Shown one piece after another: positions 13,207 through 51,493 of a stretch of DNA of 64,000 bases. This DNA is from Candidatus Parcubacteria bacterium (GTDB lineage: Bacteria > Patescibacteriota > Minisyncoccia > Phycocordibacterales > EsbW-18). The stretch is from contig JBDKFZ010000017.1 in NCBI GenBank assembly GCA_039798445.1, forward strand, positions 4,195 through 68,194. The letters are read 5' to 3'. Positions within the stretch are counted from its first letter, which is position 1; each line of letters begins with the position of its first letter. A program made the translations under genes and the position numbers. The notes below the pieces were generated by a model. The model ran no database searches and was not told the DNA's origin. It worked only from the letters and a program-made list of their open reading frames with translations.

Positions 13207-13286
13207 GGGATGGACTTATCGGTCGTTCTCTTGTATTATCTCCCCATCAGGCCTTCGGGCTTTTTTGTTTCTATCTATAAAATCCC

Positions 13287-15068
13287 ATGGAAATCCGCAA
13301 CATCGCCATCATCGCTCACGTCGACCACGGTAAGACCACTCTTACTGACGCTATTTTGCGTCAGGGTGGTGTTGAGGAAGAAGGTGTATCCATGGACTCG
13401 AATGCTCTCGAACAGGAGCGTGGTATCACCATTTACGCCAAGAACACCTCGGTCCCGTACAAGGGAACAAAGATCAACATTCTCGACACACCAGGTCACG
13501 CGGACTTTGGTTCCGAAGTCGAGCGCGTGTTGCGTTCGATCGACTCCGTTCTCCTCGTTGTTGACGCTCAAGAAGGTCCAATGCCTCAGACACGCTTCGT
13601 CCTTAAGAAGTCACTCGAGCTTGGTCTCAAGCCAATCGTCGTCATCAACAAGATCGACAAGCCTGCCGCTGATCCTGCACGCTGTGAAGAACAGGTCCTC
13701 GAATTGTTCCTCGAGCTTGGTGCATCTGACGAACAGGCAAACTTTCCTGTCGTCTACGCGATCGGCCGCATGGGTATCGCCAAGGTAAAACTCGACGAAG
13801 ATTCAAAGGATCTCTCACCACTTCTCGAAGTCATCCTTTCACACGTCCCTCCTGCTTCATCAGCATCATCCGAGGCGCCTCTTTTGGCCCAGCCTTTTAA
13901 CCTCGCATACGACAACTTCCTCGGACGTCTCGCCGTTGCTCGTATCTATCAGGGCACTATCAGCATGGGACAGACTGTCAGCATCAAAAAGCCTGATGGT
14001 CACATTCGAACCGGTAAGATCACCAAACTCTTCACATTCAACGGCCTTCAGCGTGTTGATGTTCCATCGGCTGGTGCTGGTGACATTGTTTTGGTTGCCG
14101 GTCTTTCTGACATCTATATCGGTGAGACGATCTGTTCAGATCCCGAGAGCGAACCGCTTCCTGCCATCGCCGTCGATGAACCAACTATCGTTCTCACATT
14201 CCTCGTCAACAACTCTCCCTTTGCCGGAAAAGAAGGTAAGTTCGTTACGTCACGTCAGATCCGCGAGCGTCTCGAACGCGAGCTCGAAGTGAACGTCGGT
14301 TTGCGTCTTTCATTCCCAACTCCAGATACATTTGAAGTTTATGGTCGTGGTGAACTCCACATCGCCGTTCTCCTTGAAACGATGCGTCGTGAAGGATTTG
14401 AACTCCAGGTCTCTCAGCCAAAGGCCATCATGAAGGAAGAAGACGGAGTCGTCCTTGAACCGTTCGAGGAAGTTGTTGTCGACACGCCGAACGAATTCCA
14501 AGGCGTCATCATCGAACGTTTGAGCAACCGTGGTTTCGTCATGCAAAACATGCATGCACACGACCTCACAACGCGCATCACGTTCGAAGGACCAACACGT
14601 GGTCTCCTTGGATACCGTAACCAGTTTGTCGTCGACACACGTGGTGAGGGTATCCTTGCATCGCACTTCGTCGGATTCCGTAAGTACGCGGGAGAAATTA
14701 AGAAGCGCGCGGTCGGCTCGATGGTTACTATGGTTTCCGGCAAGACGCTCGGCTTCTCGCTCTGGGGTCTTCAGGACCGCGGTATCCTCTATGTCGGTCC
14801 TGCTGTCGAAGTGTACGAAGGCATGGTGATTGGTAACACCTCAAAGGGTGAAGAGATGATGGTGAACCCGACCAAAGGTAAGCAGCTTACCAACATGCGC
14901 GCATCGGGTACCGACGAAGCGATGGATCTCGTTCCACCAATCGATTTGACCATCGAACGCGGTCTCGAGTTCATGACCGAAGACGAATACCTCGAAATCA
15001 CTCCCAAGAGCGTTCGCTTGCGCAAGCAGTTCCTCAGCGAGAACGAGCGTGCTAAGTCCCGCCGATAG
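13287..15068 (+). CDS. typA: translational GTPase TypA/BipA
   Basis: IRNIAIIAHVDHGKTTL, DTPGHADFGSEVER, NKIDK; EF-G-like domain order; 593 aa. Confidence 0.95.
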   Translation: MEIRNIAIIAHVDHGKTTLTDAILRQGGVEEEGVSMDSNALEQERGITIYAKNTSVPYKGTKINILDTPGHADFGSEVERVLRSIDSVLLVVDAQEGPMPQTRFVLKKSLELGLKPIVVINKIDKPAADPARCEEQVLELFLELGASDEQANFPVVYAIGRMGIAKVKLDEDSKDLSPLLEVILSHVPPASSASSEAPLLAQPFNLAYDNFLGRLAVARIYQGTISMGQTVSIKKPDGHIRTGKITKLFTFNGLQRVDVPSAGAGDIVLVAGLSDIYIGETICSDPESEPLPAIAVDEPTIVLTFLVNNSPFAGKEGKFVTSRQIRERLERELEVNVGLRLSFPTPDTFEVYGRGELHIAVLLETMRREGFELQVSQPKAIMKEEDGVVLEPFEEVVVDTPNEFQGVIIERLSNRGFVMQNMHAHDLTTRITFEGPTRGLLGYRNQFVVDTRGEGILASHFVGFRKYAGEIKKRAVGSMVTMVSGKTLGFSLWGLQDRGILYVGPAVEVYEGMVIGNTSKGEEMMVNPTKGKQLTNMRASGTDEAMDLVPPIDLTIERGLEFMTEDEYLEITPKSVRLRKQFLSENERAKSRR

Positions 15069-38727: not shown

Positions 38728-38780
38728 ATTGTGGTGAGTTACTATAGAAGATAATCAGTCGTTGACTCGGCTCTATTCAG

Positions 38781-38853
38781 TGGACCCTATCGGATTCGAA
38801 CCGATGACCTCCTCATTGCAAATGAGGCGCTCTACCAACTAAGCTAAGGGCCC
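38781..38853 (-). tRNA. tRNA-Ala (anticodon UGC)
   Basis: GGGCCCT-TA-GCTT-AGTTGGTA-GAGC-G-CCTCA-TTTGCAA-TGAGG-AGGTC-ATCGG-TTCGAAT-CCGAT-AGGGTCC-A; G3:U70 alanine identity pair present. Confidence 0.85.
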
Positions 38854-38966
38854 GACGCTGACTAGGATACCTCATACCCATAACGAAATCAACGCTGAAT
38901 TTACTCAACTAGTCGTTTCTGATAGTCTTTATCGAGAAACGATATCTCTATTCCTAACCGCTCAAA

Positions 38967-39350
38967 ATGAATCCATCTGAATCATCCAAAAAAGTCCTCG
39001 TAATTGATGACGACGAAGCGTTGGTAGCGGCATTGAATGAACGCCTTACTGAGGCTGGCTACACAGTCTCATCCGCCTCAGACGGACAAAAAGGGCTCGA
39101 TACTGCCCTTGAAACACAGCCGGATCTCATCATCCTCGATGTTGCGATGCCGGTTATGAACGGATGGGATGTGCTTACCGCTCTTCGAGCTGATGGTTGG
39201 GGCAAAGATGCTCGCGTGGTTATGCTCACGAATTCTGACGATATGGAAAATGTCTCGCAGGCAATCGAACAGGGGAGCACAGAATATCTCATCAAAGGAT
39301 CATGGACGCTTGATGACATTGTGGCCAAGGTGGGTCAGATGATTTCATAA
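38967..39350 (+). CDS. single-domain response regulator (CheY-like receiver)
   Basis: KVLVIDDDEALVAAL...DLIILDVAMPVMNGWDV...LTNSDD...YLIKGS; 127 aa. Confidence 0.85.
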   Translation: MNPSESSKKVLVIDDDEALVAALNERLTEAGYTVSSASDGQKGLDTALETQPDLIILDVAMPVMNGWDVLTALRADGWGKDARVVMLTNSDDMENVSQAIEQGSTEYLIKGSWTLDDIVAKVGQMIS

Positions 39351-39358
39351 CAATACGC

Positions 39359-39432
39359 GGACGATTAGCTCAGCTGGTTAGAGCGTTCGCCTCACACGCG
39401 AGAGGTCACAGGTTCAAATCCTGTATCGTCCA
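39359..39432 (+). tRNA. tRNA-Val (anticodon CAC)
   Basis: GGACGAT-TA-GCTC-AGCTGGTTA-GAGC-G-TTCGC-CTCACAC-GCGAG-AGGTC-ACAGG-TTCAAAT-CCTGT-ATCGTCC-A. Confidence 0.85.
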
Positions 39433-39458
39433 CAGGCTTTGTGTTATAAAGCCATAAA

Positions 39459-39529
39459 CGGGCTGTAGTATACCGGTAGTACATACGATTCGGGTTCGTA
39501 TAGACTGGGTTCGATTCCCAGCAGCCCGA
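39459..39529 (+). tRNA. tRNA-Pro (anticodon CGG)
   Basis: CGGGCTG-TA-GTAT-ACCGGTA-GTAC-A-TACGA-TTCGGGT-TCGTA-TAGA-CTGGG-TTCGATT-CCCAG-CAGCCCG-A; C1:G72 as in bacterial tRNA-Pro; 4-nt variable loop. Confidence 0.7.
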
Positions 39530-39585
39530 CAACATGGAGAGGTTTTGCCATCCTAGCGGGTGGGTGCATACTAAGATGACACAAT

Positions 39586-40791
39586 ATGCACAAAAAACTT
39601 TTCCACATAGGTCTTATTGTGGGGACGATCGTGCTTCTTTTTGTCCTTTTTCCTCAGGTACTGGTCCCTCAGATTGATGATCTCCCCAAGCCGCCAAGCG
39701 CAATGGCGGAATTTGTTCGTTTCGATCTGCCACCAGGTTTTACGGCTAATGTTTTTGCGTCGGATCTTCCAGGAGTTCGAGTTTTGGAAGAGGACCCCAA
39801 CGGCACAATTATTGCCTCACTAACAAAGGAGGGTAGGGTCGTGGCAGTGACTGATACCGATTATGATGGAGAGGCAAACGAAGTGGTGCCACTCATTGAT
39901 GGACTCCACAATCCCCACGGACTGGCACTCTTGTGTGAGTCAAAGAATGATAGAGAGTGTTCTCTCTATGTTGCTGAGACGGAACAAATTAGTCTTTATA
40001 CATATGATCCCGTGGCTCGAGACGCGGAGTTCGTCAAAAAAGTCGTTGATCTTCCTTCGATGGGAGACCGTATAACACGAACACTCCTTACCGACCCTTC
40101 AGGGGAGAATATCTTTGTTTCGATCGGTTCATCGTGTGAGTTTTGTCAGGAGCTTGATAGGCGTTACGCAACTATTCAGCTGCTTGATCTCAAAAAGGAA
40201 AAAATGACGACTTATGCAAATGGTCTTTACAACACGGTCTTTATGGCCATTCAGCCAACCACGGGACTTTTGTGGGGTACCGAGATGGCGCCGGGAGATC
40301 CGAGCAGTGCCCAACATTTTCCGGACGAGATTAATATTTTAAGAAAAGGCAAGAATTACGGATGGCCGTTTTGCTATGGAGATAATCTTTCGTTAGAGGA
40401 TTTTCAGGCAGAAGAAGAGTCTTTTTTTGAACAATGCAATTCTTCCAAGATTCCTTCGACGCTTGACCTTCCTCCGCATTCTGCACCACTCGGTCTTGCC
40501 TTCATACCTTCTGAGGGGTGGCCGGAAGAGTATAAAGGTGACCTTTTGGTCACATACCATGGTCCGGCAACTGCAAAGCTTGGTGATGGGCATCGAGTTG
40601 TGCGTATTAAAATGAATTCAAAAGGAATGCCTATAGGTACGGCGGAGCCTTTTATGACAGGCTTTGCCGACGAAGAGGGCCGTATTGTCGGGCGACCGGT
40701 TGCTCTCATTGCTCGAAAAGATGGGACACTCCTCGTTAGTGGAGACCTCAGCGGGGTGATTTACCGAGTTTCATGGCAAGGAGATCGTTAG
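39586..40791 (+). CDS. PQQ-dependent soluble sugar dehydrogenase-like beta-propeller protein (YliI/GSDH family), membrane-anchored
   Basis: N-terminal TM; LHNPHGLAL and GKNYGWPFCYG motifs typical of soluble aldose sugar dehydrogenases; 401 aa. Confidence 0.7.
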   Translation: MHKKLFHIGLIVGTIVLLFVLFPQVLVPQIDDLPKPPSAMAEFVRFDLPPGFTANVFASDLPGVRVLEEDPNGTIIASLTKEGRVVAVTDTDYDGEANEVVPLIDGLHNPHGLALLCESKNDRECSLYVAETEQISLYTYDPVARDAEFVKKVVDLPSMGDRITRTLLTDPSGENIFVSIGSSCEFCQELDRRYATIQLLDLKKEKMTTYANGLYNTVFMAIQPTTGLLWGTEMAPGDPSSAQHFPDEINILRKGKNYGWPFCYGDNLSLEDFQAEEESFFEQCNSSKIPSTLDLPPHSAPLGLAFIPSEGWPEEYKGDLLVTYHGPATAKLGDGHRVVRIKMNSKGMPIGTAEPFMTGFADEEGRIVGRPVALIARKDGTLLVSGDLSGVIYRVSWQGDR

Positions 40792-40889
40792 CCGTTCTCT
40801 ATCCACACTTTCTTGTCAAAGACTTTCTTGCGGGGTGATACACTGTATAGGAACAGGCGATAATGCCTGCCCGCACCCACTACCATTTT

Positions 40890-41528
40890 ATGAATCGTTT
40901 TCTCTGCCTCGTGGCGTTAGTAGGAATCGTTTCTTTGCCGTTTATTTATCCACTTGTCGAAGCGGGGATTGCAACTGCTGCAACTGCGAGCGATACCGTT
41001 GTCGTTACACTTAACGTTGATGCTGGTATTTCAATCACAAGCCCCGCTGACGTACCGATGAGCCAGAACCTCGGTGTGTCTGCAGATACTGCCGTTGGAA
41101 CAGCGGTTTGGAACGTTAAAACGAACAACGCTGCTGGGTACACGATTGCCGTCAAAGCAACAACGAGCCCAGCTCTTGTTTCTGGAGCGAACTCTGTGGC
41201 TGACTATACTCCAGGTGTTGCTGCAACACCTGAAACATGGAGCGTTTCTTCGGGTAGCGCAGAATTTGGCTTCTCGGCATTTGGGTCGCACATCTCGACT
41301 GGAACATGGGGTACAGACTCTGATTGTCTCGCAGGTGCCAACGTTCCAAGTGCGGGACTTAAGTATCGCGATTTCGATACGAGCGATATCACAATTGGTT
41401 CATCGAATGCGACAACCACAACGACAGGGGTTGATACTACGGTGTGTTTTGCAGCCGAACAAGACACGGTTTATATCCCGTCAGGTGTCTATCAGGCAAC
41501 GATTGTCGCTACTGCGACAACTCAATAA
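40890..41528 (+). CDS. secreted WxL-like domain protein, paralog 1
   Basis: Signal peptide MNRFLCLVALVGIVSLPFIYPLVEA; TAVWNVKTNNAAGYTIAVKATTSPAL and C-terminal GVYQATIVATATTQ resemble the two WxL motifs (TW.L.D.P / Y.ATL.W.L). Start at internal ATG; the track ORF starts at 40863. Confidence 0.5.
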   Translation: MNRFLCLVALVGIVSLPFIYPLVEAGIATAATASDTVVVTLNVDAGISITSPADVPMSQNLGVSADTAVGTAVWNVKTNNAAGYTIAVKATTSPALVSGANSVADYTPGVAATPETWSVSSGSAEFGFSAFGSHISTGTWGTDSDCLAGANVPSAGLKYRDFDTSDITIGSSNATTTTTGVDTTVCFAAEQDTVYIPSGVYQATIVATATTQ

Positions 41529-42488
41529 ATGAATATGAATCGGCGATCATCTATAATAAGCGCGCTCGCCGCTGCGTTTATCGTCTTTTGGGCGACTCAA
41601 GCAGTGGCTTATTCTATCGAACAGGTCAGTGTCGTCGCTTCAAACGATTTTGTTGTTGAACCTGCGAAGATTGAGATATTTGCAGACCCAGGTGATGTCA
41701 TCTCCAAGAACGTCACAATCATCAACCGTATCGAAGGGCGGTCCACGTTCACTATCTCGCTCGAAGACTTCGTTGGTTCTGATGACCCATCGGTAGCAGT
41801 AAAGCTCTTGGGTGATGAAGTAAGCCGATATTCATTCCGTGACAATATCATCCCTGAGATTGATCAGCTGAATCTGAACTTTGGTGAAAAAGCGCTCATC
41901 CCCATTACTATTCGTGTTCCTGAGACAGCTTCGCCGGGCGGTTATTATACGTCGATTGTTATCGCTCACACATCGACCGATAGTGCGGGGGAGGCGACAG
42001 GAGCCAAGACGGTTTCCCGTGTTGCCCAACTCTTGTTCGTCCGTGTTAACGGTGATGTCATTGAGGACGGCGCAGTAAAGGATTTCGTTATCTCACCGAC
42101 AAGCTTTGTTCATCTCACAGGTCCACTTACGTTCAATATTCTGTTTGAGAACCGTGGTTCGGTTCACCTTGCTCCGTACGGCTATATCACCATCAAGAAT
42201 ATTTTTGGTACCACAGTGGATCAGATTCCAGTCGATGCATATTATTCGCTTCCGCAATCGCAACGCTACCGTCAGATTATCTGGCAACAGGGAGCACGCT
42301 TCGGATACTACACAGCGACACTCGAGCTCAATAAGGGTTATCGCGAAAGCGAGACGACGGAAACAAGGACGACGTCATTCGTCTTCATTCCAATGGCGTA
42401 CCTCGCAGTCCTTCTCGTTGTCATCGTTCTTCTCCTCCTCGCGCATCGCTATGTTAAGAAGAATTTTGAGTTGCGTCGCAAGAAATAA
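41529..42488 (+). CDS. DUF916/DUF3324-like (WxL-interacting protein-like) cell-surface protein with C-terminal TM anchor
   Basis: Signal peptide, two beta-rich domains (FVVEPAKIEIFADPGDVISKNVTIINRIEG...SPGGYYTSIVIAH; LLFVRVNGDVIEDG...PYGYITIKNIFG), C-terminal TM plus basic tail FIPMAYLAVLLVVIVLLLLAHRYVKKN. Confidence 0.5.
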   Translation: MNMNRRSSIISALAAAFIVFWATQAVAYSIEQVSVVASNDFVVEPAKIEIFADPGDVISKNVTIINRIEGRSTFTISLEDFVGSDDPSVAVKLLGDEVSRYSFRDNIIPEIDQLNLNFGEKALIPITIRVPETASPGGYYTSIVIAHTSTDSAGEATGAKTVSRVAQLLFVRVNGDVIEDGAVKDFVISPTSFVHLTGPLTFNILFENRGSVHLAPYGYITIKNIFGTTVDQIPVDAYYSLPQSQRYRQIIWQQGARFGYYTATLELNKGYRESETTETRTTSFVFIPMAYLAVLLVVIVLLLLAHRYVKKNFELRRKK

Positions 42489-42493
42489 GCCCA

Positions 42494-43249
42494 ATGAGAG
42501 CATTGCCGTACATCGCAGCCACTTTTCTCTGCGTACCCTTATTGCTCTACGCTCAGGTGCGTCAAAGCAACAACTACCAGATTCTTTTTGATGCCCTCGA
42601 CAGCGGAGGAGGCCTTGGTACAAGCACAAACTACATACTCGAAAGCAGTGTCGGCGAACAAGCGACAGGGGATTCTACAAGCACAAACTACATGGTTTCT
42701 GCGGGATACCAACAAGCCGAGACAAATCTTGGCGGGGGTTCCATTTCTCTCTCTGCACCGTCAGACGTAACACTCGCGCCAATATCAGGTCTTACCGGAG
42801 GTACTTCAAAGAATACTGCAGCGTGGACAGTCATCACTGATAGCCCTGGTGGGTATACGCTTACGATTGAAGCGACATCAACACCGGCCTTTCGTGCCCC
42901 GAGCGGTGCAAGTTTCTCGAATTATGTACCCGCAACAAGCGCCCCGGATTTTAACTTTAGCGTGAACGCTGCTAGCTCTACGTTCGGGTTCTCACCTGAG
43001 GGTACGCATATCGTTGCCCGATTCAAAGATGATGGGTCATCCACCTGTAACACGGGTTCTTCAGACACAGCTGATAGATGTTATGACGCGGTAACTACAA
43101 CACCGACGAACATTGCTTCGAGCAATAGTGCTAACAGCCCAACTGGAACTGTTACGACGGTGCGTTTTGCGGCAGGCGTCGGTTCCAATAAAATTCAGGA
43201 CTCAGGATCGTACACTGCAACAATTGTTGTGACTGCTATAACACAATGA
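42494..43249 (+). CDS. secreted WxL-like domain protein, paralog 2
   Basis: Signal peptide; TAAWTVITDSPGGYTLTIEATSTPAF and C-terminal GSYTATIVVTAITQ are homologous to paralog 1. Confidence 0.5.
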   Translation: MRALPYIAATFLCVPLLLYAQVRQSNNYQILFDALDSGGGLGTSTNYILESSVGEQATGDSTSTNYMVSAGYQQAETNLGGGSISLSAPSDVTLAPISGLTGGTSKNTAAWTVITDSPGGYTLTIEATSTPAFRAPSGASFSNYVPATSAPDFNFSVNAASSTFGFSPEGTHIVARFKDDGSSTCNTGSSDTADRCYDAVTTTPTNIASSNSANSPTGTVTTVRFAAGVGSNKIQDSGSYTATIVVTAITQ

Positions 43250-44037
43250 CCATGAGATGGACGCTCTCTTTTCTTGGGTTCGTGTCACTCATCTCATTCT
43301 CGGGTCATGTGTACGCAGCATCCGATACGCTCCGTGTCGAATTGGGTGTCTATCACTGCGACAATGACGCAATCTGCGAAGTTGCTGAGAACGTCGAGTT
43401 TTGTCCGCTTGATTGTGTCGCTACAACCACAGAGGAAGAACCTGAAGAAGACGACCCACCACGACCTTCTCAAGGACCACGGGTAATCCAACAACTTGTC
43501 GACTTGTTCCAAACCTACATTCCTTTTGTTGGTGAGGGGATTGTGCCATTTGTGGGTCCAATGGATGAATCGGGATACGTTTGTGAAGATGATTTTTGCA
43601 CGGCGTTTACCGACGATCTCGCCCGCTCCGTTATTGTTTCTTTTGAGGAATCGTTTGATGGTTGGGAAAGCGGTAGTGTTTCAATCAAGCCAATTGTAGG
43701 AGGAGAGATTATTTTTGAATGGGACGACGACGTGACGATGCGTATTATGAGAAGTTTCAAAGAGTTTCCCATTGACCCATTGAGTGGTGAGCTGGTTTAT
43801 GAGGGAATGAGTGGAAAATTCATTTCGCCAGCATTTCTTGGTGCTGACATCATGTATTATTCGCTCTTTCCAAAGCATCCAGACGGCTCATATGGTCAGC
43901 CTGAATTCATCATCATCAGAAGTCAGAATGTATCGGATGACAAAAAGGCAACGAGCACGTTCCTAACGGTTGGTATAGGTGCTGTTCTTGCAGCTATCCT
44001 CGGTTTTGTCGGGAGATTTATCTTTCTTTTGATATAA
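43246..44037 (+). CDS. secreted Cys-rich, acidic protein with C-terminal TM anchor (263 aa)
   Basis: Signal peptide MTMRWTLSFLGFVSLISFSGHVYA; N-terminal CDNDAICEVAENVEFCPLDC; EEEPEEDDPP linker; C-terminal hydrophobic TFLTVGIGAVLAAILGFVGRFIFLLI. Overlaps the upstream stop by 4 nt. Confidence 0.5.
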   Translation: MTMRWTLSFLGFVSLISFSGHVYAASDTLRVELGVYHCDNDAICEVAENVEFCPLDCVATTTEEEPEEDDPPRPSQGPRVIQQLVDLFQTYIPFVGEGIVPFVGPMDESGYVCEDDFCTAFTDDLARSVIVSFEESFDGWESGSVSIKPIVGGEIIFEWDDDVTMRIMRSFKEFPIDPLSGELVYEGMSGKFISPAFLGADIMYYSLFPKHPDGSYGQPEFIIIRSQNVSDDKKATSTFLTVGIGAVLAAILGFVGRFIFLLI

Positions 44038-44045
44038 TAAACGGC

Positions 44046-47000
44046 ATGATCCGCACCTGCGCGGCATGGTTTCTGGTTGGAGTTGCACTCATTGCTGCAC
44101 AGTCTTTTGTGCCCCCAGCACAGGCAGCTTTTTCTCCCTACATCAACTATCAAGGCAAGCTTGCTGACGACACGGGAACTCCAGTTGCTGATGACCTCTA
44201 TAACATGGAGTTCAAACTCTACGACGACCCGGTGGCTGGGTCGGTTGTGTGGACTGAAACCAGAACGGGTGCAGATAAGGTGCAGGTAACTGACGGGCTT
44301 TTCAGCATCTTGTTGGGAGAGGTTGCCGCCATTGATGGTGTTAATTTCAATCAGCCGCTCTATCTCTCGGTGCAGATTGGTGGTGTTGGGACTCCATCAT
44401 GGGATGGTGAGATGACGCCACGTCGAGATATCAGTAGTGTTCCTACGGCCTTTCTTGCGGGCACGGCACTTGCACTTGATGCAACAAATGCCACGAGCAC
44501 AAACGCGACAACAACAAATCTCTATGTGAGCGGTGCTGTTGGTGTCGGGACATCAACGCCGATAACATCGATGCTTGCCATCAAGGGGTCCGCAAGCAAG
44601 GCGAATATTTTCGAAATCGCTTCTTCGACTGATGCGAATATTTTTATGGTAACGGGAACAGGGAGGGTTGGTATCGGCACGAGTTCGCCCTACGCCCGAC
44701 TCTCTGTTGCTGGCGACATCGCTCTCACCGGAGGGCTCTATGACTCAGGGGCGTCATTGGGCTCGAACGGTATGGTACTTCTTTCCACAGGAACAGGAGT
44801 TGATTGGGTCGCAACATCGACGCTTGGTATCACGGGTGGTAGCGGAAGTCTTCAGAGTGCATATGATGGCGGCGCGACTATTCAAACTGCAGCTGGCTCT
44901 CCGGTAGTCATCACTGAAACTGCCGCCGCCCTTAGCTCCTCGCACAATCTCCTACAACTCACTGCTAATCCTGGCATCGGTGGGGATTACTCAGGTGACG
45001 CGCTTCAGATCACCCTTGATGGTGTCGACGCGAACAGCAATACGGGTATCGGACTGCACATGGTGATTGATCAGTCACAGGCAACAGGAAATCCGATTGT
45101 CATTGAAGACGATGCCGGTTTTGACCTCCTGGCACTTTCACAAACAGGTGGACTGACTGTTGGTAGTGCAACACAACGTTTAGACAGCACCATCTATGGC
45201 GATTTGGTGACAAAAGGTCACACCATTCAACGTTCGCTTACGGGTATTCTTGATATCTTTATTTATGATACGACACGTGACTCTGATGGAGGTGCGTGGC
45301 GCACCAATGGTCTCACGTCAGGAACATCGTGGTATACCGAAACAAAAGATGATGGGCCGAATGATGCTTGTGTTATTGGGACGGATGACCGTTGCGGTTC
45401 GTCTGTTTTTCCGCGCAAAGCAATCTTGGTAACGACAGTTGAGAGCCTCTATATTTTTGATGCAAAGGACAACTCATTGTGGATGGAGTTCACACAAGAT
45501 GGAACATATGCGCTTGGTGCAAGCACGGGTAATCCTTCAGGTGTTGGTGCGGTAAACGGTACGGTCTACGTTGGTACTAATGGAACAGGAACAGGTCTCT
45601 ACGCTTTTGATTTTATTAGCGATCGAATGTATCGCTATAACGCTACAAACCGTGTTCAGGCGGATACGAAGATTGGGACTCGTAATACAGCAACAACATA
45701 TGCGACAGATGCTCAAACAAGTCTTGCGATTCTAGATGCAGTTGTGAACGACGTGTCTGCAGCGCTCCAGTACGGTAGTAGTGAAGGAACTACAAACGTC
45801 GCTGGTGCCATACCCCTCGACTCAGGTGCCGGACCACTTCGTGGTGTCGTGCTCATTGCCGCTGCCACGGATACAGGAATCTCTGTCATTCATCCCGATA
45901 CACAGGAGGTCATTAACTACTCTGATGCCACAAACGACGACTACAATACGGTGCACATGACAACGCGCGGTCGCATGTATGCTGCAAATGAAACACGCGC
46001 ACAACTTGAAACATGGAGAAACGTTGATAGAGATGTAACGGCGGAAACAAACGGTACGCCAGATAGATGGTATGACGAAACAATCACGGCCGGTACTATC
46101 ACCGGAGGACAGGTTCCTGCTATTGCAACATCACCCGCAACAATTGCTGTAGCCGAGCGCGCATCTCTTGCGAGAGAGGCAACAGCAACAGGTAACAATG
46201 ATTCGGGTGATGTTGTTCTTTTTGGAACAAGCCAAGGTTTTGCTGAAATCCATGATTCAGGAGGTAACTTGGGTGCTGCGGCATGGACCCGATTCGTCAG
46301 TACGGCAACAGCGACACCGCTTATGGTTGGTGGTGTAAAAAGCCTCTTCCTTTTTGAGGAGGCCGCTGGAGCAACAGACGCTCTGTCATCACTTGGTAGT
46401 GGTGCAAACATTCTTCAGAGTTTTAATACCCCCACCTTCGGCACATCGGGGGTTCGTGGGACAGCGGTTGATCTCAATGGAACATCACAATTTTTCTGTA
46501 CTGACGGAACAGGAAACGATGGTGTGTGTGATAACGACACCGACTACAATATGGCGGCCACAAGTTGGACCGTTTCTGCGTGGCTGAAGCATGATTTGAC
46601 TCCCGCAGGTATAGATACTGTATTTGAAAAGTGTTGGGTACCCGCAACGCCATCAGCAGGAACGGGGTGTGCGTGGGGAGGAATGAATGCTTCTGGGCAG
46701 TACATTATGGGTGTTGATGACGACGCAACGTGGACGGTTGGTTCGTCGATGGACGACTTAACTACAGCTGCAGGACCTTCATATGCCGATGGTCTTTGGC
46801 ACCATGTCGTGTTTACTAACACAGACACCGACATCTGTGTGTATGTTGACGGAAAACAAGTGACCTGTGACTCAACTCTTGCGGCAACGGCGACACTTGA
46901 TACCTCTGCTGTAACACTTACGGTCGGTGCATCGTGTGCTGGGGCAAACTGTGTAACGGGTGCAAACTTTTTTGCAGGTGAAATGGATGATCTCGCGTTT

Positions 47001-49472
47001 AGCATGGGTGGCGGTACAACAGCGAGTGGTGTGACACAGGCAGGAGCGGCATCACTTTTCCTTGATGGTAGAGCACACCTTCTTCAAAAACGTATTGCTG
47101 TGACGAATGCAACTGCCTTTTCAGCAACAACAATCGGAGATTCTGGAGAGACATGGATTCCTAATGAATTTGTTGGAAGAATTGTTGAAATAACGGGTGA
47201 TTTGGGTGCGGGTCAGACACGTCGAGTTGTTTCAAACACAGCAACTGTGCTTACGGTGGATACTGCCTGGGGCACAACACCAGATGCAACATCTGACTTT
47301 AGTATTGATTCAGAACGACTTTTTGGAACAAGCAATAACGTTACATCTGTTGCTGTTGATGCCACAACATACGTACTCGGTCAGGCACGAAGGATGTACG
47401 TTGGTACGAGTGATGGGTCTGATGGTGGTGGTGTAAACGTCTTCTCGAACATAGGTTCTGGTTCTATACTCACCGATGTTATTCACACACAAGGAACTGT
47501 TCCAAATGACGACTTTGGTACAGCGTGGTCAGGAAGTGATGCTGATGATATACAAGCATTGGCCATGACATCAGGTACGCTCGTTTTTGGAACACAGGCA
47601 TTTATACGAGCCCAGGAAAATGATGTAAGTCTTGAACAACAGCAGCAGACTGTTCTTGGTGCATTGAACGGTATCCAGCAAGAACTTGTTGCACACTACT
47701 TGTTTGGATCAACAAACAATTTGCTTGGTGTGGGGAATGGTGCTGACCTTGCTGAACTTTATGTTTCAGCAGAGCCGCTCCTTGCGGGGGATATTGTTGC
47801 GGTTGATCAGAACGTTACGAGTGGCGTTCTTCGCTCAACGAAGGCATATCAAAAGAATGTCATTGGTATTGTTGCAACGCGCCCAGGGCTCGTTCTTGGT
47901 CCTGCAGAAGCATCATCATACCCAATTGCACTCGTTGGACGAGTGCCGGTGAATGTAACAACAGACAATGGCGTTATTAGAATGGGGGACAGAATTACGA
48001 CGTCCTCGCTTAGTGGGTATGGTATGCGCGCTACCCAGGCGGGTCGCGTGCTTGGTACTGCACTCGAAAGCATGAAGGTAGAAAATCTCGATGCGTGTCC
48101 TGGCGATGACGAATCATCACCGCGACGTTGCGGACAGGTAATGGTGTTTGTGAATCTTGTTGATTACTCGGGTATGTCGGTATCTCTTCTTGCTCAAGAG
48201 GCGGGGGATATCACGACAGCCGAGATTATTCCCGCCGCTTGTATCGACGCCGATGGTGCGACAACGACTCCAAGCTCGGGAGGTGTCTGTGGGGAAGACG
48301 AGACACTTGTTCCTTCGTATGAACTCTCTGTGGTGTCCGAGACAGGGTCTTATGAACTGTTGGATGGTCTCGAAGTTCTCTCATTCCTCAAAGAGAATGG
48401 AGATACTGTCCTTGATTCTGAGATGTTCACCGGACGGCTCTCAGCAGGTCTCGATATCATCACGCCGCACATATTTACCGACACTCTTTCGGTCAGTGCA
48501 ATCGAATCATCTTCGGATGATGGGGGGATAGCCCTTATGCTCGGAGACAATGGTCGTTTTGAGATACGAAGAAAGGGTGACCCAGAAGATCCTTCCGCAA
48601 CATCGTCCGTCTTGGTGACGTTTGATGCGGAAGGAAATGCTGTCTTCTCAGGAACAATCAGCGCTCAAGGATTGACGTTCGGTAGTGACGTCGCGACACA
48701 CACCGCTACAACCAGCTCTCCAGCATTGTTCATCGCATCAATCGAAGAAGGTGTCGCCGATGCTCTTGTGGTAATCCGATCCGCGTTGGTGCGCTCATTT
48801 GCGGCAGTGACGCTCTATGCAGAGAACATGTTCGCTTCGACCATCACGATTATTCCTGAAGGACGTATTGCAGTACCATCGGGAAGGGATCAAATCTCAG
48901 GTACTGCACGCATCCCGTCAGGATCTTCAAGTGTTGATGTTGAGAATGCGTCTGTCCTTGCAACAAGCAAGATCTTCATTACACCGCTTTCTGTCAGTGA
49001 ACACCCACTGGTCGTCACATTGAAGCGCCCCGGTATCGGATTCACGATTTCGCTCTTCGCTCCGGCCGCTCTCGACATCTACTTCGATTGGCTCCTTGTC
49101 GATTCGTATCCGACAGACGATACTACAACGTCGGTTCCAGGTGAGACGGTGGTTGAAGACATCCCAATAGAGGAGACCCCTCTCGAAGAGGCCCCGCCAG
49201 ACACGTCTGACGAGCCTGAAGTCGAACCCTCATCTGAAGAACTCGAGGTAGAGACCGCACCGGAGCCTGTAGTTGAAGAGGGAACAGAACCCGAAGTTGA
49301 GGAGCTTCCACAAGAGCCAGAGGCGGCGGTTGAACCTCCAGCTGACCTGCCTGCGCAGATGGGAGAGTCCGAACCCAAGATCGAGGCCGAACCGACACCT
49401 GAACCTGAGCCAGAAGAAGAGCCAGAACAAGAAAACGTAGAACCTGAGCCTACGGAGGAACCCACCACATAG
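44046..49472 (+). CDS. giant secreted surface protein (1808 aa) with tail-fibre-like Gly/Thr/Ser repeats, LamG/concanavalin-A-like domain and acidic Pro/Glu-rich C-terminal tail
   Basis: Signal peptide MIRTCAAWFLVGVALIAAQSFVPPAQA; repeated ..VGIGTS.P..L.V.G.. segments; LamG-like block around DLNGTSQFFCTDG...WTVSAWLKHD...GLWHHVVFTN...ICVYVDGKQV; C-terminus EPEVEPSSEELEVETAPEPVVEEGTEPEVEELPQEPE... Confidence 0.8.
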   Translation: MIRTCAAWFLVGVALIAAQSFVPPAQAAFSPYINYQGKLADDTGTPVADDLYNMEFKLYDDPVAGSVVWTETRTGADKVQVTDGLFSILLGEVAAIDGVNFNQPLYLSVQIGGVGTPSWDGEMTPRRDISSVPTAFLAGTALALDATNATSTNATTTNLYVSGAVGVGTSTPITSMLAIKGSASKANIFEIASSTDANIFMVTGTGRVGIGTSSPYARLSVAGDIALTGGLYDSGASLGSNGMVLLSTGTGVDWVATSTLGITGGSGSLQSAYDGGATIQTAAGSPVVITETAAALSSSHNLLQLTANPGIGGDYSGDALQITLDGVDANSNTGIGLHMVIDQSQATGNPIVIEDDAGFDLLALSQTGGLTVGSATQRLDSTIYGDLVTKGHTIQRSLTGILDIFIYDTTRDSDGGAWRTNGLTSGTSWYTETKDDGPNDACVIGTDDRCGSSVFPRKAILVTTVESLYIFDAKDNSLWMEFTQDGTYALGASTGNPSGVGAVNGTVYVGTNGTGTGLYAFDFISDRMYRYNATNRVQADTKIGTRNTATTYATDAQTSLAILDAVVNDVSAALQYGSSEGTTNVAGAIPLDSGAGPLRGVVLIAAATDTGISVIHPDTQEVINYSDATNDDYNTVHMTTRGRMYAANETRAQLETWRNVDRDVTAETNGTPDRWYDETITAGTITGGQVPAIATSPATIAVAERASLAREATATGNNDSGDVVLFGTSQGFAEIHDSGGNLGAAAWTRFVSTATATPLMVGGVKSLFLFEEAAGATDALSSLGSGANILQSFNTPTFGTSGVRGTAVDLNGTSQFFCTDGTGNDGVCDNDTDYNMAATSWTVSAWLKHDLTPAGIDTVFEKCWVPATPSAGTGCAWGGMNASGQYIMGVDDDATWTVGSSMDDLTTAAGPSYADGLWHHVVFTNTDTDICVYVDGKQVTCDSTLAATATLDTSAVTLTVGASCAGANCVTGANFFAGEMDDLAFSMGGGTTASGVTQAGAASLFLDGRAHLLQKRIAVTNATAFSATTIGDSGETWIPNEFVGRIVEITGDLGAGQTRRVVSNTATVLTVDTAWGTTPDATSDFSIDSERLFGTSNNVTSVAVDATTYVLGQARRMYVGTSDGSDGGGVNVFSNIGSGSILTDVIHTQGTVPNDDFGTAWSGSDADDIQALAMTSGTLVFGTQAFIRAQENDVSLEQQQQTVLGALNGIQQELVAHYLFGSTNNLLGVGNGADLAELYVSAEPLLAGDIVAVDQNVTSGVLRSTKAYQKNVIGIVATRPGLVLGPAEASSYPIALVGRVPVNVTTDNGVIRMGDRITTSSLSGYGMRATQAGRVLGTALESMKVENLDACPGDDESSPRRCGQVMVFVNLVDYSGMSVSLLAQEAGDITTAEIIPAACIDADGATTTPSSGGVCGEDETLVPSYELSVVSETGSYELLDGLEVLSFLKENGDTVLDSEMFTGRLSAGLDIITPHIFTDTLSVSAIESSSDDGGIALMLGDNGRFEIRRKGDPEDPSATSSVLVTFDAEGNAVFSGTISAQGLTFGSDVATHTATTSSPALFIASIEEGVADALVVIRSALVRSFAAVTLYAENMFASTITIIPEGRIAVPSGRDQISGTARIPSGSSSVDVENASVLATSKIFITPLSVSEHPLVVTLKRPGIGFTISLFAPAALDIYFDWLLVDSYPTDDTTTSVPGETVVEDIPIEETPLEEAPPDTSDEPEVEPSSEELEVETAPEPVVEEGTEPEVEELPQEPEAAVEPPADLPAQMGESEPKIEAEPTPEPEPEEEPEQENVEPEPTEEPTT

Positions 49473-49478
49473 AACATC

Positions 49479-50465
49479 ATGATGCTTTCTCGTAACAAAA
49501 TGATTCTCATCGCCGCAGGGACACTCGTACTTGGGTTTTTGTTTGGCTTTTTCTTTCCGCGCAGCAGCGAGGTCAACGAGGCTACGGGCGAATGGCGTCT
49601 TGGCTCCTCATCACTTACAAATCCTTTGCTTGAGTGCGATCTCGGGGAAGAAGCTCTTTCAAGTAAAAAAATTGATTTTACATCGGATCTTAGACATTTT
49701 GTTGATGATCTCAAAGATGAAATGGGCATAGAGGATATTTCTGTGTATTATCGCGATCTCAATAACGGACCAGTGTTCGGTATCAACCAAGAGGAATCAT
49801 TTGCGCCGGCAAGTCTTCTTAAGATTCCGCTTCTGATTTCATATTTGCGATGGGCCGAGGATGACCCAAAGGTATTGGATGAACGGATACTTTTTGAAAA
49901 CTCAGTTGATGTGGGCTATCAGCAGGAGTTTGCGCCGTCAGTTCCTCTTGTGCCAGGAACAACATACACCGCTCGCGAACTGCTTGAACACATGATTAAG
50001 TATTCTGACAATCAGGCGCTTATGTTGTTGTTTAATCGTATTCCTCGACAATATCAAGAAGAACTCTACACATTACTGGGTGTCGACGCATCTCTCATTA
50101 CTGACCCACTCGGTCGTCTTACAGTGAAGCAGTACAGTATCTTCTTTAGAATCCTCTTTAACGCGTCATTTTTGTCGAGAACACACTCCGAATATGCTTT
50201 AAAGCTCTTAACGGAAACCTCTTTCGTTGATGGTCTCCGCGCATCGGTGCCCGAGTCAATTCCTATTGCACATAAGTTTGGAGAACGAAAGACAAGGACG
50301 GACCTTCAGCAGTTCCACGACTGCGGTATTGTTTATTATCCAGGACATCCATATCTAATTTGCATTATGACTCGCGGAAATGATGTGACGTCGCTCATTA
50401 ATGCTATTCGAGAGACCTCGCGCTTTGTGTACGAGGAGATTGATGCGCAATATGCATCTGAATAG
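49479..50465 (+). CDS. class A beta-lactamase-like / penicillin-binding serine hydrolase
   Basis: N-terminal TM; SxxK (ASLLK), SDN (YSDNQ), K[ST]G-like (HKFG) motifs in the right order; 328 aa. Confidence 0.7.
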   Translation: MMLSRNKMILIAAGTLVLGFLFGFFFPRSSEVNEATGEWRLGSSSLTNPLLECDLGEEALSSKKIDFTSDLRHFVDDLKDEMGIEDISVYYRDLNNGPVFGINQEESFAPASLLKIPLLISYLRWAEDDPKVLDERILFENSVDVGYQQEFAPSVPLVPGTTYTARELLEHMIKYSDNQALMLLFNRIPRQYQEELYTLLGVDASLITDPLGRLTVKQYSIFFRILFNASFLSRTHSEYALKLLTETSFVDGLRASVPESIPIAHKFGERKTRTDLQQFHDCGIVYYPGHPYLICIMTRGNDVTSLINAIRETSRFVYEEIDAQYASE

Positions 50466-50998: not shown

Positions 50999-51394
50999 AT
51001 GCTCAAGATATTTCTCATCGCTCTCATTGTCTTCCTCATCATCGATGCCATCTGGCTTTTGGGCATCTCTCGTGATTTGTATCAGCGTGCGATTGGTTTC
51101 TTGATGCCGGAGAAGGTGAATCTCTTGGCAGCGATGAGGGCGTACCTCCTCCTCGCGCTCGGTTTGACGTTGTTTGTTATTGCGCCGGGTATTCGCGAAG
51201 GCCTTTCAATCGGACATATCACTCTTTTGGGCGCAGCCTTTGGTCTCGTTGCTTACGGCATCTACGACTTCACCAATCTCGCCACCATCAAAGGCTGGCC
51301 GCTCTGGATATCGCTCGTCGATATGGGGTGGGGGACGCTCGTGTCGGGTCTTACGACCGCCGCCACGGTTTACCTTCTCAGATTCTTCTCCTAG
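50999..51394 (+). CDS. DUF2177-family membrane protein
   Basis: MLKIFLIALIVFLIIDAIWLLGI...LLGAAFGLVAYGIYDFTNLATIKGWPLWISLVD; 131 aa. Confidence 0.6.
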   Translation: MLKIFLIALIVFLIIDAIWLLGISRDLYQRAIGFLMPEKVNLLAAMRAYLLLALGLTLFVIAPGIREGLSIGHITLLGAAFGLVAYGIYDFTNLATIKGWPLWISLVDMGWGTLVSGLTTAATVYLLRFFS

Positions 51395-51421: not shown

Positions 51422-51493
51422 GCTCTCGTCGTTCAATGGATAGGATGCCTCCCTCCGAAGGAGGCGATGCAGGTTCGATTCCTGCTGAGAGCA
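51422..51493 (+). tRNA. tRNA-Arg (anticodon CCG), candidate with weak D stem
   Basis: GCTCTCG-TC-GTTC-AATGGATA-GGAT-G-CCTCC-CTCCGAA-GGAGG-CGAT-GCAGG-TTCGATT-CCTGC-TGAGAGC-A; good acceptor, anticodon and T arms; D stem relies on G:U pairs. Confidence 0.55.

Follow-up and report, generated by a model that had tools for sequence, protein, structure and literature searches.

Pam pili, described in a 2026 preprint on Ca. Mycosynbacter amalyticus (bioRxiv 10.64898/2026.03.03.709456) and known mainly from Saccharimonadia and Microgenomatia, are the only pili other than type IV pili described for Patescibacteria. They are built from PamA and PamB, two-domain filament pilins of 55 and 39 kDa that are linked by donor-strand exchange, and their operons also encode PamC and PamD, two PapD/FimC-like chaperones with C-terminal transmembrane (TM) helices, PamT, which consists of one domain, lacks a donor strand and is the proposed tip, and PamR, in which an additional N-terminal strand accompanies two fibronectin type III (FnIII) domains and a TM helix and which is the proposed terminator and anchor; an usher is absent and a conserved tail fibre-like protein is encoded adjacently (10.64898/2026.03.03.709456). 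Here, we analysed a stretch of 64,000 nucleotides from Candidatus Parcubacteria bacterium (the window) and, within it, a block of five genes on the + strand at positions 40863-49472, termed g1 to g5 in order. We suggest that this block is probably a minimal usher-less operon for a chaperone-assisted pilus or fibre, i.e. a distant variant of the Pam system that is joined to a giant variable adhesin.

The block and the pam operons share (i) restriction to the Candidate Phyla Radiation (CPR), the encoding of Sec-exported proteins, the absence of an usher and a tail fibre-like neighbour, (ii) immunoglobulin (Ig)-like pilins that are completed by the strand of a neighbour, a property that is suggested for the block by a sequence motif together with the predicted fold of g3, and (iii) a TM-anchored protein with the fold of PapD/FimC-like chaperones, a strandless subunit of PamT type, to which g3 is related below the model cutoff, and a candidate anchor with FnIII domains, a TM helix and an N-terminal strand. 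The likeness of g2 to PamC and PamD and of g4 to PamR is one of architecture and fold, drawn from the published descriptions and not from sequence. The block differs from Pam in that a single-domain putative shaft pilin of ~190 amino acids (aa) takes the place of the two-domain PamA and PamB, in that PamC and PamD have a single chaperone-like counterpart (g2) and PamE has no separate one, and in that all scores against NCBIfam models are below the cutoffs. Moreover, its hosts are Paceibacteria/Parcubacteria rather than Saccharimonadia or Microgenomatia, and the ATP-synthase neighbourhood is not seen inside the conserved module. In a literature search, the Pam preprint was the only earlier description found for Patescibacteria. 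The first-pass annotation of the window had considered the arrangement undescribed; with the Pam pili of CPR bacteria as the closest described system, it is not wholly so.

The second described system with which the block compares is the WxL cluster. WxL proteins occur almost entirely in Lactobacillales and Bacillales, and the commonest type of cluster has one WxL-interacting protein (WxLIP) and two WxL proteins; a hairpin strand of WxLIP is predicted to fill a gap in the WxL sandwich (PMC10599100), which would in effect be donor-strand complementation. Common to these clusters and the block are a WxLIP homologue and two small paralogues, often with a large surface protein next to them. A WxL cluster is defined by two or more WxL-domain proteins (Pfam WxL, dual W-x-L motifs) encoded no further than a few genes from a WxLIP and by its occurrence in Lactobacillales or Bacillales with a peptidoglycan-bound surface complex; in the block, in contrast, neither g1 nor g3 is a WxL domain by sequence comparison, motif or structural search, the organism is no Firmicute and the homologues of g1 to g3 are all from Patescibacteria, and the g4-type anchor and the conserved N-terminus of the giant fibre are features outside that definition. 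The first-pass annotation had read the locus as WxL-like, and of this reading the assignment of g2 survives, whereas that of g1 and g3 does not.

In the list of open reading frames (ORFs) of the window, the five ORFs lie on the + strand, to which all coordinates refer, where the first-pass annotation had placed five co-directional and tightly packed genes: g1 (40863/40890-41528; 221/212 aa depending on the start chosen), a small secreted single-domain pilin-like protein and candidate shaft subunit; g2 (41529-42488; 319 aa), a membrane-anchored protein with two Ig domains and candidate pilin chaperone; g3 (42494-43249; 251 aa), a PamT-like pilin and candidate tip or cap subunit; g4 (43246-44037; 263 aa), a protein of PamR-like architecture and candidate terminator and membrane anchor; and g5 (44046-49472; 1808 aa), a secreted tail fibre-like giant and candidate host-recognition adhesin. 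The spacers between them are, in order, 0, 5, -4 and 8 nt. For g1 we favour the start at 40890, because a weak sigma-70-like hexamer pair (GTGATA-18-GATAAT, 40835-40864) overlaps the first in-frame ATG at 40863; this agrees with the public annotation, in which a protein 100% identical to the 212-aa form is found in a Candidatus Parcubacteria bacterium metagenome-assembled genome (MAG) at NCBI. A promoter and terminator scan of the region gave nothing above shuffled expectation, promoter-like sites included. All five products begin with hydrophobic segments or helices, and it is from these N-terminal features only that the signal peptides assigned to them earlier are judged.

The block is conserved as a unit. 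A pattern scan of the GTDB species representatives for the g3 family recovered at least 155 relatives. Synteny was examined in 80 of these loci, in which gene types were assigned by hidden Markov models (HMMs) and phmmer and many of which end at contig ends. Gene order and strand are constant across the checked loci: g2 adjoins g3 in 78/80, an upstream pilin precedes g2 and g3 in 57/80, g4 is present in 50/80, a giant ORF with the N-terminus of g5 follows g4 in 53/80 and all five genes are found in 33/80. An independent assembly (L001; L-numbers denote the compared loci) contains the complete block with each of its genes. A five-gene block of this kind is far beyond chance. We set its boundaries at the conserved module since the gene order recurs elsewhere while the flanking genes are kept only in close relatives.

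Searches of Pfam, PHROGs and PDB sequences with the proteins of the window gave no match for g1 to g4 and a LamG domain alone for g5. By family profiles and structural modelling, g2 is a full-length WxLIP homologue, i.e. DUF916 and DUF3324 followed by a TM helix, with a predicted PapD-like two-domain fold, as its proposed WxL-interacting architecture had implied. While the sequence of g2 itself is below Pfam detection, PF06030 (WxLIP_PGBD/DUF916) is matched by 34 of 65 aligned relatives (best 1.4e-8); PF11797 (DUF3324) is not among the 25 families listed of the 36 matched in this search. The family profile finds the solved E. faecium WxLIP1 (EfmWxLIP1) in the PDB with E=2e-8. Using genuine WxL clusters from Enterococcus, Lactococcus, Listeria and Lactiplantibacillus plasmids (10 WxL proteins and 7 WxLIPs) as references, HHalign aligned the g2 family with the seven WxLIPs at 96.8% (E=3.1e-10) over 256 columns that comprise both domains and the TM helix. 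The AlphaFold2 (AF2) model of g2 (predicted local distance difference test score, pLDDT, 93.5) has a signal helix, two beta-sandwich domains and a C-terminal TM helix (42393-42464; aa ~289-312; AF2 helix 289-312, hydropathy peak 280-311) with a basic tail after it, which agrees with the two beta-rich domains, TM helix and basic tail seen earlier. Foldseek places this model next to 9i25_C, the E. faecium locus A WxLIP bound to long WxL (2.7e-12), and 9i1y (~3e-12), then RbmA and then the chaperones CsuC, CfaA, FimC and Caf1M of chaperone-usher systems. In architecture and fold, g2 therefore has both the domain order of a WxLIP (DUF916/PGBD, DUF3324/HBD and C-terminal TM helix) and the PapD/FimC-like form with a C-terminal TM helix of the Pam chaperones. 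The Pam preprint makes no mention of WxL, DUF916, Parcubacteria or Paceibacteria, and PMC10599100 does not discuss chaperones or CPR bacteria; the homology of a chaperone-like protein of CPR bacteria to the Firmicute WxLIPs, which the profile comparisons support, appears to be a new link.

The partners of g2 are of a different kind. g1 and g3 are paralogues, as had been proposed (BLASTP, 39% identity across 171 aa, E=6e-22), and the additional claim that they are WxL-like is refuted by every comparison made: the WxL models of Pfam are matched by 0/60 and 0/55 relatives (g3 and g1 families, respectively) and no Pfam model by g1 and g3 themselves, the HHalign values of g1 and g3 against the 10 WxL references are 4.7% and 2.8% and drop to less than 1% on trimmed domains, a literal W-x-L motif is found in neither protein and the structural matches of the g3 model do not include the WxL chain of 9i25. 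We consequently rule out WxL identity for both. The pairing by eye of GY-T-L-x-V and Y-x-A-T-I with the two WxL motifs is without statistical support.

These results bear on an alternative in which the block encodes a non-polymeric WxL-type surface complex: membrane-held g2 would retain single g1 and g3 by strand insertion and form a bridge from wall to host, with g4 and g5 as extra surface proteins. Such a complex would suit a genuine, full-length WxLIP homologue, an order of small protein, WxLIP and second paralogue that recurs in many Firmicute clusters (e.g. L089 and L086) and a count of one WxLIP to two small proteins that equals that of the commonest cluster type; moreover, polymerisation in the block is only deduced. 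However, g1 and g3 fail all WxL tests (Pfam, 0/115 relatives; HHalign, <5%; no W-x-L), the model of g3 resembles polymerising donor-strand pilins, some loci have extra tandem copies of g1, and retention of monomers would leave unexplained why g1 has its donor-type strand in common with the TM-anchored g4. On balance, we consider a non-polymeric complex unlikely.

The comparisons with pilins point towards the chaperone-assisted pilus. g3 matches the NCBIfam model NF058579 (CPR-type pilus protein PamT) with 28.3 bits and E=1.1e-6 over profile positions 11-129 of 241, and 56/60 of its relatives do so as well (best 2.6e-17); the similarity is significant but sub-cutoff, and by sequence g3 is a relative of PamT and not an equivalog. 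g1 reaches 19 bits (E~1e-3) over positions 13-146 of 148 of NF058581 (CPR_Pam_pilin_C); the Pam models in NCBIfam date from June 2026. In place of the N-terminal beta-sandwich domain of PamA/B-type pilins, with its donor strand in the linker, g1 has only a short N-terminal strand, and its Cys pair C146/C186 is conserved; in some loci it occurs in two or three tandem copies. The structural model of g3 has a pilin fold, and Foldseek matches it to donor-strand pilins. The mature N-terminus of g3 carries three S-x-N-Y repeats (42566-42709; aa ~25-72), which are a family consensus, are modelled by AF2 as low-confidence beta-hairpins and recur in distant PamT-like proteins of L002 and L091. When the PDB copy was searched with g1 and g3, with the profiles of both and with the larger L002 and L091 pilins, no solved Pam structure was matched. 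Separately, a match of the g3 profile to PDB 9jdi_C 'BtpiA' (E=0.12) is not significant and was set aside, and a literature search gave no BtpiA paper; the aligned segment of 9jdi_C, W-T-I-x-A-D-x-x-x-G-Y-S-L, resembles the conserved W-T-V-x-T-D-x-x-x-G-Y-x-L of g3.

A donor-strand fibre could also form without a chaperone, as in TasA-like or archaeal-type fibres, with g1 assembling by itself and g2 being an unrelated surface protein with Ig domains. We regard this as very improbable: g2 stays next to g3 in all but two of the checked loci, its fold and homology point to strand-donating WxLIP/PapD-like proteins, and in the Foldseek ranking of the g3 model chaperone-usher pilins stand above TasA-like matches.

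A further argument for a chaperone-assisted pilus is a strand that g1 and g4 have in common. In g1, it is found directly after the signal peptide (40992-41018; aa 35-43, D-T-V-V-V-T-L-N-V) and is strongly conserved in the family (D35 98%, V37 100%, V39 83% with 100% hydrophobic residues, L41 98% and V43 100%). In g4, the candidate strand (43324-43350; aa 27-35, D-T-L-R-V-E-L-G-V) stands just before the Cys knot C-N-N-N..C-E..C-P-x-D-C, and the g4 family at large has [AS]-x-D-x-[VI]-x-[VI]-x-L-x-V-x-G after the signal peptide, followed by the knot C-N-N-N-x-I-C-E...C-P-x-D-C and a Pro/Thr linker. When 73 family members were aligned on the first Cys, positions -9, -7, -5 and -3 were hydrophobic in 75, 95, 88 and 92%, and the D at -11 was 57% conserved; the spacing agrees with that of the g1 motif. 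Scored over the first 130 residues of the ORFs in the 80 loci, a strict D-x-V-x-V-x-L-x-V-type motif occurs in 72% of g1-type, 30% of g4-type and 1% of g3-type ORFs, in 0% of g2-type and of giant g5-type ORFs and in 1.1% of all others; relaxed versions of the motif were also scored. By these measures g1 and g4 possess a common N-terminal D-x-V-x-V-x-L-x-V strand that g3 lacks, and this strand may serve as a donor strand.

The remainder of g4 is consistent with an anchor. The protein consists, in order, of a signal peptide, the donor-like strand, a four-Cys knot, an acidic and Pro-containing linker, an FnIII-like block and a C-terminal TM anchor (43948-44034; aa 235-263 by hydropathy scan), and with 6 Cys and 42 D+E versus 15 K+R it is Cys-rich and acidic; its Cys-rich, acidic and TM-anchored character had been noticed in the first pass. 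The family (94 representatives) is conserved in two blocks, aa 12-66 and 160-220; its members are typically 430-560 aa long, contain fn3 / Pur_ac_phosph_N domains and a stretch resembling tandem FnIII domains and have a TM helix with a basic tail at the C-terminus, and g4 of the window is a short member with one FnIII-like block. At the level of architecture the family thus has the N-terminal strand, tandem FnIII domains and C-terminal TM helix of PamR; none of its sequences matches a Pam-named NCBIfam model.

Combining these data, we suggest that the five products would be exported by Sec and that g2, held in the membrane by its C-terminal helix, would use a beta-strand of its first Ig domain to complete the Ig folds of g1 and g3, which are incomplete on export, for which WxLIP and the PapD-type chaperones serve as the model. 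g1, with a pilin domain and an N-terminal strand, would polymerise head to tail by donor-strand exchange and form the shaft; g3, with a pilin domain and no donor strand, could only accept a strand and would occupy the distal end; and g4, with the same strand as g1 but no pilin domain, would close off the terminal g1 and, by means of its FnIII spacer(s) and TM anchor, fix the fibre to the membrane. g5, with its constant N-terminal module and changing remainder, would most likely provide specificity for hosts or surfaces and would act either independently or docked through its invariant N-terminus. Chaperone activity, polymerisation, the order of subunits, membrane tethering and a physical link between the fibre and g5 are properties that we infer.

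Several observations weigh against this scheme. The score of g1 against NF058581 is far under the 55-bit cutoff, with matches in 2/55 of its relatives, and that of g3 against NF058579 is far below the 240-bit equivalog cutoff; none of the g2 relatives matches a Pam-named NCBIfam model. The Foldseek E-values of the g3 model are weak (best 3e-3), and the pilin fold of g1 would follow from that model by paralogy. The strict strand motif is present in just 30% of g4-type ORFs, and the case for a filament formed by donor-strand exchange consists of the conserved donor-like motif and the pilin fold. As to the systems used for comparison, WxLIP is described as a protein that retains or bridges and not as a chaperone (PMC10599100), and the role of PamT as tip is an AlphaFold-based proposal of the preprint only (10.64898/2026.03.03.709456).

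g5 is conserved between genomes only at aa ~20-240 (coverage profile of 50 loci). This N-terminal module (44103-44765) begins with a mature N-terminus, ..QINYQGKL..YNMEFKLY..WTETRT..VQVT.GLFS, that is nearly invariant in more than 50 loci and continues with fibre repeats of the type VG[IV]GTSxP, of which g5 has two; aa 28-92 match the NCBIfam model Bdello_MAT_N weakly (E=1.7e-4). Beyond the module, giants of the g5 type vary in content and in length, from ~1,000 to 2,900 aa or more. In g5, this part includes a LamG / concanavalin-A-like lectin domain (46515-47000; aa 824-985; PF13385, Laminin_G_3, E=1.9e-11; 44.8 bits against a gathering cutoff of 27.6), which we assign to the variable part since it is seen only in the close relatives L001, L004, L005 and L078, and it ends in an acidic Pro/Glu-rich tail (49020-49469; 38 E and 27 P in the last 150 aa). 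The LamG domain, repeats and acidic tail that the first pass had reported are thus all real. A hydropathy scan finds only the N-terminal signal peptide and no TM segment, thus no anchor of its own, and searches of PHROGs and of PDB sequences gave no match. One related giant (L090; 4169 aa) has a Peptidase_S74 tail-fibre chaperone domain, and in this locus a small HTH_17 (excisionase-type) gene lies at 13286-13660 between the g4-like gene and the giant; its presence hints that the giant-fibre gene may be swapped as a cassette. In g5, the QINYQGKL region (44124-44160; aa ~27-39) follows the pattern hydrophobic-x-hydrophobic-x-G-x-hydrophobic, which is typical of the donor strands (N-terminal extensions) of Pap and Fim pilins.

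This pattern is one reason to consider that g1 to g4 form no pilus of their own and instead serve g5 as a module of chaperone, adaptor and anchor, in which g3 or g1 would cap the QINYQGKL N-terminus and g4 would tether the complex. In accordance with this proposal, a giant with a near-invariant mature N-terminus follows g4 in about two thirds of the checked loci, that N-terminus has the look of a chaperone-usher donor strand, g5 is without its own anchor and the three SxNY repeats of g3 could suit a trimeric fibre. On the other hand, the N-terminus of g5 also matches the N-terminal domain of the mosaic adhesive trimer (MAT) fibres of Bdellovibrio, and the motif may be a mere feature of fibre domains; we know of no donor-strand pilus in the MAT system. 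In addition, the helix-turn-helix gene of L090 separates the g4-like gene from the giant. We consider a module devoted to g5 alone improbable; it would also be compatible with a pilus and may be an addition to the chaperone-assisted pilus rather than its replacement. It is conceivable that a physical junction exists between the putative tip subunit g3, through its three SxNY repeats, and a trimeric g5 fibre. The resemblance of g5 to the MAT fibres of Bdellovibrio and to phage tail fibres lies in the combination of a conserved N-terminal module and a distal part that is mosaic and differs between genomes (PMC10769870), and Bdellovibrio, like the present organism, must recognise another bacterium; g5 differs in its genetic coupling to a pilin and chaperone module and in its lack of PHROGs and PDB sequence matches.

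Other routes of pilus assembly were rejected. Patescibacteria are monoderm, and in contrast to the archaic (Csu of Acinetobacter, CupE of Pseudomonas) and classical (Fim, Pap) chaperone-usher pili, the block belongs to cells without an outer membrane and contains no usher gene; its chaperone-like protein is tethered to the membrane, its putative terminator is a TM protein and not a PapH-like pilin, and no sequence similarity is detectable. With no usher domain in the five products or the L001 neighbours, an usher-based pilus is ruled out. Likewise, a C-terminal LPxTG-like signal is found in none of g1, g3 and g5 and there is no sortase among the called neighbours, which rules out a sortase-dependent pilus.

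All homologues of g1 to g3 that we found come from Patescibacteria MAGs, in keeping with the earlier proposal of a surface or host-contact locus in a non-Firmicute, small-genome background. The titles of the 80 loci are almost all patescibacterial (Nomura-, Vogel-, Taylor-, Lloyd-, Kaiser- and Zambryskii-bacteria, Paceibacteria and Minisyncoccia). Operon-bearing records titled Burkholderiales, Saccharofermentanales or Saccharibacteria also occur (L026, JAMPXW010000002.1; L063, JBBQKF010000118.1; and many 'uncultured Candidatus Saccharibacteria' TPA_asm records); wrong labels or wrong binning of MAG contigs probably account for these titles, which should not be taken for a wider taxonomic spread. 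Distant versions of the operon are present in L091 (6825-20972, OZ246408.1) and L002 (7545-20957, SCUM01000001.1), with pilins of 317-385 aa and a PamT-like protein; L091 additionally encodes two g2-like chaperone paralogues, a 644-aa protein with two fn3 domains and an N-terminal domain that is pilin-like by eye, a 1019-aa SpaA/CarboxypepD_reg-type protein and then a giant of more than 3100 aa. Loci of the L002/L091 type look like intermediates towards the canonical Pam operon.

As to the surroundings of the block, a gene on the same strand 6 nt past g5 (49479-50465) encodes a 328-aa membrane-anchored protein with a class-A beta-lactamase fold (PF13354); since it is conserved in close relatives only, it probably lies outside the core module. 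The gene directly upstream (39586-40791) codes for a protein of 401 aa that has a hydrophobic segment at its N-terminus and domains like those of sugar dehydrogenases of the pyrroloquinoline quinone (PQQ) type (GSDH / TrAA12); close relatives alone keep this gene beside the block. A short way upstream of the region, genes for tRNA-Ala, tRNA-Val and tRNA-Pro (within 38780-39530) stand on the two sides of a response-regulator gene, and a tRNA-Arg gene (51422-51493) lies ~2 kb downstream of the block. A gene for a DUF2177 membrane protein (50999-51394) lies ~1.5 kb downstream; a DUF2177 gene is likewise found a few kb downstream of the WxL/WxLIP cluster of Listeria innocua (L086, 10013-10375), and this co-occurrence is probably coincidental.

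The homology of g2 to WxLIPs leads us to a broader and as yet doubtful idea, namely that WxLIP-type proteins represent one ancient usher-less system, consisting of a tethered chaperone and a strand-complemented subunit in bacteria without an outer membrane, with the Firmicute WxL proteins, Pam and the present operon as its branches; g5 would have been joined to it by means of the QINYQGKL strand, with the SxNY repeats of g3 possibly at the junction. If true, WxL proteins would have to be reinterpreted as donor-strand-complemented subunits, and a candidate organelle for host attachment, with an exchangeable module for specificity, could be assigned to the Paceibacteria, the largest CPR class. 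A life attached to other microbes is assumed for Patescibacteria, and the means by which they find and hold their hosts are largely unknown. The block would represent a simpler system built on the logic of Pam, made up of a pilin with one domain, a single tethered chaperone, a subunit resembling PamT, an anchor with FnIII and TM segments and a mosaic giant fibre, all components of which are currently labelled 'hypothetical' in the Paceibacteria/Parcubacteria genomes that carry the operon. The constant N-terminus and variable body of the giant make it a plausible determinant of host range that can be mined across genomes.

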